From a virus (taxonomy: Duplodnaviria > Heunggongvirae > Uroviricota > Caudoviricetes), in the IMG/VR virus record IMGVR_UViG_3300006147_000007: 64,000 nt of DNA, one strand, 5' to 3'. Positions 34,616-36,052 of this stretch are shown here, piece by piece; positions within the stretch are counted from its first letter, which is position 1; each line of letters opens with the position of its first letter. Under the pieces are notes generated by a model. It saw only the letters and a program-made list of their open reading frames with translations, had not been told where the DNA came from and searched no databases. The position numbers were made by a program, and so were the translations under genes.

Positions 34616-35029
34616 TTATAAGTTATTATACATCATATTAGATAACGTATATGAGATAGATGGGGTTGCAATTGAAATACATAATGATAATATTGACAAA
34701 ATATCATTTGAAGTCTCACAATGATAAATAATATATAAAGGAGAAAATACAAAAAATAATATTAATTGGATGATGATATAAAAAAATCTATATTTTTTCC
34801 TATATTTATTTTTATTTGTCTCAGAAAATTCTGAGTTTTTTATTTTGTTATAATACACTGCGTATATATTATTTATCAATTCGTATATTACAAAATTAAG
34901 AGCAATAATATTAATTAATGCCATAATTAATACTAAATCTTTTGATGTCTGGAGAAAATATCTTGTTATTGATAAAATTATTCCAACTGAAATTATGTAA
35001 ATTGATGTTCTTGTATTTTTATCATTCAC
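34616..35029 (-). CDS. 4-TM small membrane protein (last gene of the four-gene operon)
   Basis: Four hydrophobic helices; overlaps the upstream gene by 4 nt. Confidence 0.45.
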   Translation of the reverse strand: MNDKNTRTSIYIISVGIILSITRYFLQTSKDLVLIMALINIIALNFVIYELINNIYAVYYNKIKNSEFSETNKNKYRKKYRFFYIIIQLILFFVFSPLYIIYHCETSNDILSILSLCISIATPSISYTLSNMMYNNL

Positions 35030-35502
35030 CTTTTGCCCTCTGTTTCTTCTAACTCTGTATAAATAATTATTATAGCTGATACTAAAGACGTAATAATACT
35101 TTTGAAATTATTCTCGTCCAAATCCTCTGTTATTTCTTTAAATTTATTTCTATAATAGTAGGATATTTCCTCATTCTTATTTCTTAGAAATATATTACCA
35201 AATAATAATTTGGAATTAGCATTATTTACAGCTACAAGAGTAGATAGTAAACTATCTGCATCTTTTAATTTATAGATACCTGTACAAGCAATTGCAATAG
35301 TATTTTGTTCAATAGAACTAGATAAAATTACACGAATATACCCTATAGATTTTAAAATTTCTGATTTAATATATTTATATGGATTAATATGTAACATATA
35401 AATTAATTCGTCTTCATTATCCAAATTGAAGTTTTGATAATGAATATCTAGTTTTTCAAAAAAATATTCCAAATTATTCTTTAATATCTCTTTTTTATCC
35501 AT
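35026..35502 (-). CDS. hypothetical 158-aa protein (tentatively YbjN / T3SS-chaperone-like)
   Basis: RBS GAGGAAG; size and alternating hydrophobic pattern are reminiscent of YbjN, but the similarity is weak. Confidence 0.35.
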   Translation of the reverse strand: MDKKEILKNNLEYFFEKLDIHYQNFNLDNEDELIYMLHINPYKYIKSEILKSIGYIRVILSSSIEQNTIAIACTGIYKLKDADSLLSTLVAVNNANSKLLFGNIFLRNKNEEISYYYRNKFKEITEDLDENNFKSIITSLVSAIIIIYTELEETEGKR

Positions 35503-35740
35503 AATCTTCCTCAGCGTTTCTAAAATATTCTTTTATACTTTTTATTGTTTTGTAATCTTGCTGATCAAAAATCTGCACTCTGCTAATTTTATCATCAATA
35601 CTAATAGAAAAATTATCATTGCTTAATATTGTTGTTCTATTATTTTTAAAATGTAAATCTAAATTAAACTCTTTAATTAAATTTTTTAAATAATCTTTAT
35701 TAGGAGAAAATTTATTTACAAATAATAAGTATTTGTACAT
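35495..35740 (-). CDS. hypothetical 81-aa protein
   Basis: Translationally coupled to the upstream gene (adjacent) and the downstream gene (8-nt overlap). Confidence 0.35.
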   Translation of the reverse strand: MYKYLLFVNKFSPNKDYLKNLIKEFNLDLHFKNNRTTILSNDNFSISIDDKISRVQIFDQQDYKTIKSIKEYFRNAEEDYG

Positions 35741-36052
35741 CTATATTTCCTCCTTATTTTTCTTTAATTCTTCTTTATTCATTTCATACATATCTAAATA
35801 AAAAAATGTATCTTCTATTTCTAAACAATCATTGTTATATCGTTCTTTAAATTGTAACATAGAATTCTTATATCTTGGCGAACCAGAAGCCAAAACAAGT
35901 TCTATAATTTTTACAACTTCTATATTAGGGTTTTCTTTATAAAATCTATCAATAAGTTCCTCAACTTTTTCATTAAATTTTGCTTTTTCTTCCAAAGCAA
36001 TTTTTATATCATCTATTAAATTTTTCTTCATATGTAATATGAATCCCTCCAT
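35741..36052 (-). CDS. hypothetical 103-aa protein (first gene of the four-gene operon)
   Basis: ORF with a Lys/Glu-rich helical composition; the start is uncertain because the RBS is weak. Confidence 0.35.
   Translation of the reverse strand: MEGFILHMKKNLIDDIKIALEEKAKFNEKVEELIDRFYKENPNIEVVKIIELVLASGSPRYKNSMLQFKERYNNDCLEIEDTFFYLDMYEMNKEELKKNKEEI

Follow-up and report, generated by a model that had tools for sequence, protein, structure and literature searches.

Endonuclease-carrying group I introns interrupt several phage genes, among them td/nrdB/sunY of T4, bnrdE/F of SPbeta and orf142 of Twort. IStrons such as CdISt1 and BcISt1 associate a group I ribozyme of type IA2 with an insertion sequence, of the IS200/IS605 type or other, in elements of 482-2582 nucleotides (nt) that hold transposase or TnpB genes (PMC4227781). 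Here we describe a stretch of 64,000 nt from a virus of the Caudoviricetes (IMG/VR record IMGVR_UViG_3300006147_000007), the whole of which is called the window below, in which a phage tape measure gene is divided by a 6214-nt intervening sequence that we read as a group I intron. This element contains, together with other cargo, a cassette of four small genes (36052-34616; minus strand, as are all window features below unless stated otherwise), which was the starting point of the analysis.

The nearest described architecture is that of the IStron, with the ribozyme first and the cargo after P9.2. The window element resembles IStrons in its 5' ribozyme-like domain, in its cargo placed after P9 near the 3' splice site, in its occurrence in Clostridia and their phages, in the U·G wobble of P1, in the terminal G and in the short hairpins near the ends of the cargo-bearing region. 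Unlike IStrons, elements of the window type measure 3.6-7.1 kb, hold several unrelated genes on both strands with promoter-like sites of their own, lack conserved IS200/605 genes (a single IS110 was found, in the related locus L127) and occupy one fixed site in one gene. Their ends also differ, with insertion after GGU and a ..GUAYG terminus compared to TCAG or CGG in IStrons. No IS200/IS605-type or IS3-like transposase or TnpB was found in the cargo of any complete intron and the sizes lie outside 482-2582 nt, which places these elements apart from the IStrons. With the endonuclease-carrying introns the element shares an essential phage gene as host, an internal guide, a terminal G and peripheral open reading frames (ORFs) as cargo; it differs from them in being a variable multi-gene island, 3-7 times longer, with an unusually long P10 (11 base pairs, bp).

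For the cassette, two groups of proteins can be compared. Membrane proteins of superinfection exclusion (Sie) and abortive infection (Abi) include Sie2009, Ltp, T4 Imm/Sp and small membrane Abi effectors. The cassette resembles these systems in encoding a small membrane protein, in being a prophage moron with a promoter-like site of its own and in occupying a variable, defence-rich locus; it differs by the lack of sequence or profile similarity, by having four genes and by a hot spot that would be an intron in a structural gene, where prophage defence hot spots are intergenic. The second group is formed by the 'TY-chaperones' of the type III secretion system (T3SS)/YbjN fold, which have been predicted to be components of bacterial immune systems (PMC9503650). 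The third cassette protein has the same alpha-beta fold as YbjN (6vu7), AmyR (5fr7) and CesT (5z38), with a Foldseek probability of 1.0 and a TM-score of ~0.55, and a conflict-type neighbourhood. Its identity to them is only 9-14%, and in contrast with the published systems (PMC9503650) it has other partner genes and no NAD/ADP-ribose enzyme. Full-text literature searches returned no description of such a tape measure intron or of the four-gene cassette.

We hold with moderate confidence that the locus consists of an accessory cassette, probably an anti-phage module, within a tape measure intron. More tentatively, we propose that one tape measure site of SPbeta-like Lachnospiraceae phages may be occupied by giant self-splicing introns of group I, 3.6-7.1 kb long, which would be interchangeable vehicles for defence and other accessory genes ('island in an intron'), and that the cassette may be an undescribed anti-phage system moving between introns and defence islands.

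The tape measure gene is divided at a conserved site

The upstream part of the tape measure gene (exon 1, 39001-37055) ends with ..SFKNIG (GGT), and the annotated ORF of 658 amino acids (aa; 39001-37025) runs nine codons further into the intervening sequence (37054-30841). The downstream part (exon 2, 30840-23629) starts with ATA TTC AAA ACA (IFKT), preceded by an 'ATG' (30843-30841) made of the last three bases of the intervening sequence, at which the annotated 2404-aa ORF (30843-23629) begins. The 658-aa ORF represents the N-terminal region of a tape measure protein of SPbeta type (PhageMin_Tail; positions 552-949 of 2625 in PHROG 4211) and the 2404-aa ORF to the remainder of that protein. 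Exon 2 has a G+C content of 38.9% and a strong negative AT skew, the window as a whole being at 32% G+C.

We compared 17 loci with a complete element; related loci are designated below by L numbers. The border start codon of the downstream exon is ATG in 11/17 of them and ACG in the other six, and no Shine-Dalgarno sequence precedes the border ATG, which indicates that the downstream ORF is not a gene of its own. When GGU is joined to AUA, the reading frame is open and in register in all 17 loci, giving ..SFKN(I/V)G followed by (I/M)F(K/T)T... Two intron-less homologues (P0122 and P0129) carry KDYG-ITK, which aligns without a gap to KNIG-IFK. The position of the junction follows from this alignment, which rules out a register retaining the Met/Thr codon. 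The intron borders share GGUA/AGUA. A cut after GG with exon 2 starting at UAYG.., for which group B IStrons provide a precedent (PMC4227781), was rejected: it adds one residue (Met/Thr), and the intron-less homologues are gap-free only with exon 2 at AUA. Joining GGU to UAYG, which satisfies both canonical rules with the G of UAG, was also rejected as the frame runs into a stop.

Intact tape measure proteins of Bacillus phages align across the junction in one piece. Nearly all homologues retrieved with a junction-spanning query (~40%-93% identity) stop at the junction; since each of them covers half of the query, the split is, as judged from these alignments, widespread among tape measure genes, with the same site and arrangement across diverged genes. 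The intron would interrupt the gene between Gly (GGT) and Ile (ATA), and a spliced late transcript would again encode a tape measure protein of ~3050 aa, with a predicted ligated junction in which ..AACAUCGGU is followed by AUAUUCAAAAC.. (also written ..AAGAACATCGGT followed by ATATTCAAAACATTT..). The original prediction, which had read the four cassette genes correctly, had missed this setting inside an intron-like element.

The 5' border carries an RNA with group I features

The coding signal ends right after ..SFKNIG and is followed by a 650-nt stretch richer in G+C (37%; 37054-36405), predicted to be a structured, ribozyme-like RNA domain with several GNRA loops and a tetraloop receptor of the UAUGG/CCUAAG type. 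This 5' stretch is kept in related phages that have wholly different downstream genes (L002, L063, L128, L130 and more). It begins with an L1 hairpin (37050-37034). About 40-60 nt into the element, a guide of the form 5'-GUUUUGAA-NNN-R-CC..-3' was found, the 5' part of which pairs with the first 11 bases of exon 2 (P10); in the window (guide at 37014-37004) AUAUUCAAAAC pairs with GUUUUGAAUAU at 11/11 positions, and 9-11 of 11 bp are formed in all nine distinct junction types. The 3' part of the guide pairs with the end of exon 1 (P1), as AUGUCGG/CCGACAU in L127 and over 6-7 bp in the sister type. U·G and C·A are two isosteric wobbles tolerated at the 5' splice site of group I introns. The last exon base and the guide base R (a wobble G at 37003 in the window) form U·G (34 loci) or C·A (33 loci); a Watson-Crick pair was seen in none. 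The last base of the exon has been described as U, exceptionally C (PMC4227781).

At the other border, every locus shows a short hairpin, an AU-rich spacer and UAGUAYG, then AUAUUCAAAAC. In the window this 3' tail (30895-30841) comprises a hairpin at 30895-30877, the conserved ..AUAGUAUG and the terminal G at 30841. The terminal G of ..UAGUAYG is invariant in 17/17 complete loci, given that the search pattern itself required the motif.

RNAalifold applied to 11 distinct sequences proposed 137 pairs, 52 of them with compensatory changes. The P3 pseudoknot (36913-36907 with 36634-36628, AAAUCGU/ACGAUUU) was added by eye; it has 7 bp with 3 compensatory pairs, L063 reading AAGCCAU/AUGGCUU with three double changes. 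P7 (36644-36638 with 36604-36597) contains a bulged A and 4/7 compensatory pairs, and the P8 hairpin (36628-36607) is nested in it. In the real structure 97.8% of the cells were paired, compared to 37-42% in slid controls, and 55 pairs showed double changes versus 4-9 in these controls. None of 500 shuffles reached the observed values for cells paired, for pairs or cells with double changes, or for the covariation score. Along the strand, the P3 5' strand is followed by a large domain, in which three GAAA loops, one GUAA loop and the UAUGG/CCUAAG-type receptor are found, then by GUUCAGAGAAUCUAAACG, which we take to resemble the classical group I 'R' element, the P3 3' strand, the P8 hairpin, GGGGUUCC closing the bulged-A P7, and the hairpins of the P9 region. 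As read from the sequences, this order is that of the group I core topology, and we consider it likely that the intervening sequence is a group I intron.

Two observations concern the folding of this RNA. The hairpin at 30895-30877 has a counterpart at the equivalent position of every sister intron, 20-45 nt ahead of the 3' splice site, with at least 6 covarying stems; its loop has the conserved form NYUCAAACA (GUCCACA in the window) and imitates the guide-pairing sequence of exon 2. Candidate roles are the delivery of the 3' splice site, a decoy or a site acting at the DNA level. In addition, the guide strand (37014-37002) can alternatively pair with an invariant segment at ~36925-36914, just before P3 (alignment columns 54-64 with 143-154), and this alternative pairing may constitute a conformational switch.

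Splicing and its alternatives

Several points weigh against a self-splicing intron. P1 of the window subtype is reduced to GG/CC and the wobble. The core was assigned by eye, and the covariation of P3 comes from L063 only. Rfam searches of the window, of six related loci and of the 711-nt RNA by itself, in both gathering and E-value mode, gave no match to group I (RF00028) or group II introns; this negative carries little weight, because Rfam also misses the ordinary endonuclease-bearing intron of L063 (L002 was outside the scan). Finally, a precursor of ~6 kb must pass genes on the opposite strand and terminator-like hairpins. One of these lies just after the RNA domain (36434-36401), where a weak hairpin followed by a U-run was read from the sequence; a scan for terminators did not call it, its stem having only 2 GC pairs.

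If the element did not splice, either the tape measure would consist of two polypeptides or the prophage would be a defective one; the 6.2 kb would then be a DNA-level insertion or a moron island, and the conserved RNA would be of another nature. The absence of an Rfam intron match, the weak P1, the cargo genes on both strands and the terminator-like hairpins are all compatible with this view, as are a 3-nt repeat (GTA) present at both borders and the ATG at the border of 11/17 downstream exons. That ATG has no Shine-Dalgarno sequence, however, and is replaced by ACG in 6/17. A DNA insertion also leaves unexplained the U·G/C·A covariation, the 11-bp pairing of the guide with exon 2, the invariant G and the covarying P3 and P7; the same site and arrangement recur across diverged tape measure genes, and no recombinase is conserved in the cargo. 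We regard the absence of splicing as unlikely. Two other kinds of element were discarded. The extent of the 5' domain and a GUGCG inside the element had suggested a group II intron, but the element starts with AAAUG and ends with UAYG, without a GUGYG at the border; its last ~100 nt hold one AU-rich hairpin and leave no room for domains V/VI, and it has no reverse transcriptase ORF. A transposon with target duplication or terminal inverted repeats was rejected as well, since the apparent inverted repeat is the guide/P10 pair, which covaries with exon 2; no transposase is conserved among the intron cargo.

Four coupled genes form a conserved cassette

Within the predicted intron, the 650-nt ribozyme-like domain would occupy the 5' end and the cassette would be cargo in the 3' part, after the P9 region, as in IStrons. 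The four minus-strand ORFs of 103, 81, 158 and 137 aa that had drawn attention to the locus were all recovered. Gene 1 (36052-35741, 103 aa) and gene 2 (35740-35495, 81 aa) abut with 0 nt between them, gene 2 shares 8 nt with gene 3 (35502-35026, 158 aa), and gene 3 shares 4 nt (GTGA) with gene 4 (35029-34616, 137 aa, GTG start). The start of gene 1 is ambiguous: the ATG at 36052 lacks a Shine-Dalgarno sequence, and a start at Met8, whose ATG follows a GGAGGG, would yield a protein of 96 aa. The pattern of a translationally coupled small operon is borne out both by this spacing and by the conservation of gene order in other loci. A 56-aa ORF after gene 4 (34366-34536) was considered as a fifth member and rejected, as the other loci examined do not share it.

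Every complete locus with any of these genes had all four of them, closely packed and in an unchanged order. A jackhmmer census of the fetched loci gave 19-21 cassette loci, to which L379-L387 are added, so that more than 25 other loci are known overall. The relatives of genes 1-4 encode proteins of 100-115, 70-81, 148-158 and 136-142 aa, respectively; pairwise identity to the window proteins is 20-50% and all four alignments contain conserved columns. In the L124 copy gene 4 is broken. Exact copies of the window proteins occur in a few metagenome contigs only. Relatives of gene 3 numbered 15 (90-168 aa) in an exhaustive HMMER search and 48 in a profile search; a word-indexed single-sequence search with the 158-aa protein returned only itself. 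Judged by this comparison of loci, the operon goes well beyond a fortuitous group of ORFs. Its G+C content is 21.6%, compared to 32.1% for the window.

A promoter-like site of the sigma-A type with an extended -10 box lies upstream of gene 1 (36109-36081; TAGACA, 17 nt, TGATAATAT, the latter read as TG-A-TAATAT). The promoter proposed by the original prediction is therefore present as a motif, but taken alone it is no better than chance: promoter-like matches in this AT-rich window amount to 49 sites versus 53 expected from shuffles. Inspection by eye of 8 other cassette loci revealed extended -10 boxes, several with a -35 box, ahead of gene 1 in most of them, whatever the surroundings, and a textbook TTGACA-17-TGTATAAT in L385. 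In L123 and L127, a terminator-like hairpin stands ahead of the promoter-like box. Because of these boxes upstream of gene 1 across loci and of the hairpins that precede them in L123 and L127, we consider that the cassette behaves as an autonomous transcription unit. The four genes would form one conserved accessory ('moron') cassette on its own sigma-A promoter, independent of the late genes of the phage.

Fold and topology of the cassette proteins

The proteins encoded by genes 1 and 2 are soluble and contain conserved motifs: gene 1 is acidic and probably helical, with ..L.IEDTL.L.DWYE.. near its C-terminus, and gene 2 carries KN.RT.IW.ND...IS.D..IIR. Neither matched anything in Pfam, PHROGs, NCBIfam, PADLOC or a profile search of PDB sequences.

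Gene 3 was modelled with AlphaFold2. The single sequence gave a pLDDT of 57; this model was replaced by one based on the family alignment, which reached 93.2. A Foldseek search of the PDB with the latter returned YbjN (6vu7), PA14_16140 (8q8o), VecA, AmyR, SicP, CesT, ExsC and SycE, with probabilities of ~1.0 and TM-scores of ~0.5-0.6, the top matches being nearly all YbjN or T3SS chaperones. Pfam YbjN matches were weak, present in 5/16 members of the gene 3 family, with a best E-value of 0.003, below the cut-off; one homologue (P0062) has a precomputed PF10722. On the strength of the model, gene 3 has a predicted YbjN/T3SS class I chaperone fold ('TY-chaperone'), alpha-beta-beta-beta(-beta)-alpha-beta-beta-alpha. 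The weak call of a YbjN/T3SS-chaperone-like protein made earlier from size and hydrophobic periodicity proved right.

Gene 4 encodes a small membrane protein, as had been proposed for the last product of the operon. Four hydrophobic segments, two strong and two moderate, were located at residues ~10-27, 29-53, 80-104 and 109-128, and a hand calculation placed 8 Lys/Arg in the 27 residues of the loop 56-82. This basic, presumably cytoplasmic loop and the segments fit an N-in/C-in topology with ~4 transmembrane segments. In an alignment of 7 sequences the residues R23, N40, Y99, N108, D109 and L116 are invariant besides M1.

Remote-homology searches had been suggested for all four proteins. They assigned a fold to gene 3 through Foldseek; for genes 1, 2 and 4, profile searches against PDB sequences gave nothing below E = 0.09. 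The earlier statement that none of the four carries an assignable motif accordingly stands for genes 1, 2 and 4, which match no family, and falls for gene 3. In PADLOC-DB v2.0.0, genes 1-3 had no match and gene 4 reached only E = 0.13 to a CARF_TM model.

Surroundings of the cassette and its candidate role

The cassette was found in three kinds of location. In the window and most relatives it lies between two tape measure ORFs. In L133-L135 and L129 it belongs to defence islands without tail genes. The order in L133-L135 is RdrB (RADAR, E 1e-32), a 232-aa gene, the cassette, NsnA/NsnB/NsnC (Menshen; NsnB E 2e-95) and a ThsA-ThsB fusion (Thoeris; E 5e-115), the whole forming in L133 a compact island at 1-12324; in L129, the cassette is near AriA/AriB (PARIS), an S24 repressor and a DAC-domain gene. 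The third location is represented by L379/L380, where the cassette is directly upstream of an intact, independently translated tape measure gene of 1956 aa, from which a terminator-like hairpin separates it in L379, and by L385-L387, where it adjoins a DNA methylase and a sigma-like gene.

This context is the best available lead to the role of the cassette, by guilt by association. It makes a defence or exclusion role plausible, and as far as gene neighbourhoods can tell we favour such a role. The cassette would probably be an anti-phage module of the prophage that works through superinfection exclusion or abortive infection, in which the four-transmembrane gene 4 protein would be the membrane effector and gene 3, translationally coupled to it, a peptide-binding partner. 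Gene 3 could hold in check the effector, or the small soluble proteins of genes 1 and 2; alternatively, it could recognise an incoming phage protein. The toxin/immunity or Abi module of the original prediction finds support in the neighbours seen in L133 and L129 and in the defence-type cargo of sister introns, which suggest a part in conflict systems, and none in the families searched. With the sole exception of the YbjN fold of gene 3, the four proteins match no known defence, toxin or immunity family in PADLOC, Pfam, PHROG, NCBIfam or PDB, and this counts against the proposed role, together with three further points: the sample of contexts was grown from one seed protein; the cassette often sits in or beside tape measure genes, as in L379, which could mean a role in the tail; and guilt by association is indirect.

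A tail role would have the chaperone keep hydrophobic segments of the tape measure protein soluble and the membrane protein aid assembly or DNA injection. It would account for the fact that most copies lie within tape measure introns, for the position of the cassette immediately upstream of the intact 1956-aa gene in L379/L380 and for the peptide-binding chaperone fold of gene 3. Homologues conserved as tail chaperone or assembly genes would, according to the original prediction, have spoken against its module, and this outcome is superficially approached but not reached: most homologues are in or next to tape measure genes. Nevertheless, the cassette is optional, being present in only 5/15 listed complete introns; L002 and L063, whose tape measure genes are related, hold other cargo; and copies also stand far from any tail gene, beside RADAR/Menshen/Thoeris, PARIS or a DNA methylase. 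It has its own promoter-like box, and in L379 the terminator-like hairpin precedes the tape measure gene. Known tail assembly chaperones are a soluble pair joined by a -1 frameshift, encoded upstream of the tape measure gene and shared by all related phages, not a chaperone with a four-transmembrane protein, and no PHROG tail match was obtained for the cassette, which includes a membrane protein. A tail role is, in our view, very unlikely. We give little credence also to a selfish addiction module of the toxin-antitoxin type, or a lysogenic-conversion membrane function (lysis timing, envelope change), that would stabilise the prophage or the intron and not be directed at other phages. Many toxin-antitoxin and holin-like sets indeed consist of small coupled genes, the last encoding a membrane protein; the cassette is rich in AT and has the look of a horizontal acquisition, and no sensor or nuclease domain is recognisable in it. 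Against this, four genes and not two are always conserved, the cassette is repeatedly placed inside bona fide defence islands, and no holin, toxin or antitoxin family was matched.

Variable cargo in a family of probable giant introns

The 17 complete elements measure 3651-7140 nt. A scan of genome collections gave mostly chance matches and three real copies, two of them identified as metagenome-assembled genomes of Lachnospiraceae (Jutongia, Butyrivibrio). A scan with the 15-mer ATCAGCAACGGAACC likewise returned mostly chance matches, those in L063 and L101 being the only real ones, and no DNA similarity of the window to deposited phages was found.

The cargo was compared in 15 listed complete introns. 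In 12/15, the first cargo gene encodes an NsnA-like GmrSD_N (DUF262) protein of 325-345 aa (e.g. L127 3273-4310, L124 3345-4343), which may serve in defence or in the mobility of the intron itself. The window intron lacks this gene, and a GmrSD_N protein is encoded ~6.5 kb upstream of it (43575-44546). Other cargo of the sister introns includes HEC-09, PD-T4-2_A, a type II restriction-enzyme-like protein, an NYN nuclease, a LytTR response regulator and an IS110. Because the cargo varies between elements, we suggest from these gene contents that the element works as an accessory-gene hot spot, with mostly defence-type genes.

If this is true, an essential late gene could house cargo with its own promoters without any burden on the phage. 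If splicing takes place, the load of bacterial group I introns would grow from one endonuclease or transposase gene to a multi-gene, independently transcribed and rapidly exchanged island, and these introns would represent a new type of hot spot for phage accessory genes, one that is annotated as 'two tape measure genes with junk between them'. Since nearly all retrieved tape measure homologues are cut at the site, gene callers would systematically mis-annotate such phages. If the cassette protects lysogens, it would be a new defence system made of a T3SS-chaperone-like protein and a tiny membrane effector, a combination that is not listed in PADLOC-DB.

Besides the 56-aa ORF, the remaining cargo of the window element comprises three genes. 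A zinc-ribbon protein (30948-31427, plus strand), with zinc-ribbon Pfam matches only, is encoded antisense at the intron's 3' end; homologues occupy the same position in most sister introns (L124 7272-7781, L127 6472-6828, L130 8133-8927), and the protein could be a regulator or a mobility factor. A 496-aa protein (31494-32984) shows no conservation in the other loci that were examined. The third gene (33245-34126, plus strand) encodes a membrane-anchored protein of 293 aa, rich in lysine and asparagine, which was not found in these loci and has a weak PHROG match to 'superinfection exclusion' (E = 0.0055).

A second, ordinary-looking intron is present in related tape measure genes at ..NVGGK-YQA.. 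(L002 11320-13293, L063 3769-5337, the latter on the minus strand). It contains an endonuclease-like ORF of 433 aa or 312 aa and looks like the endonuclease-carrying type; the window is uninterrupted at the equivalent site (37372/37373). Elsewhere in the window, two phage tRNA genes were found, tRNA-Ser(TGA) at 62557-62651 and tRNA-Tyr(GTA) at 63908-63992.

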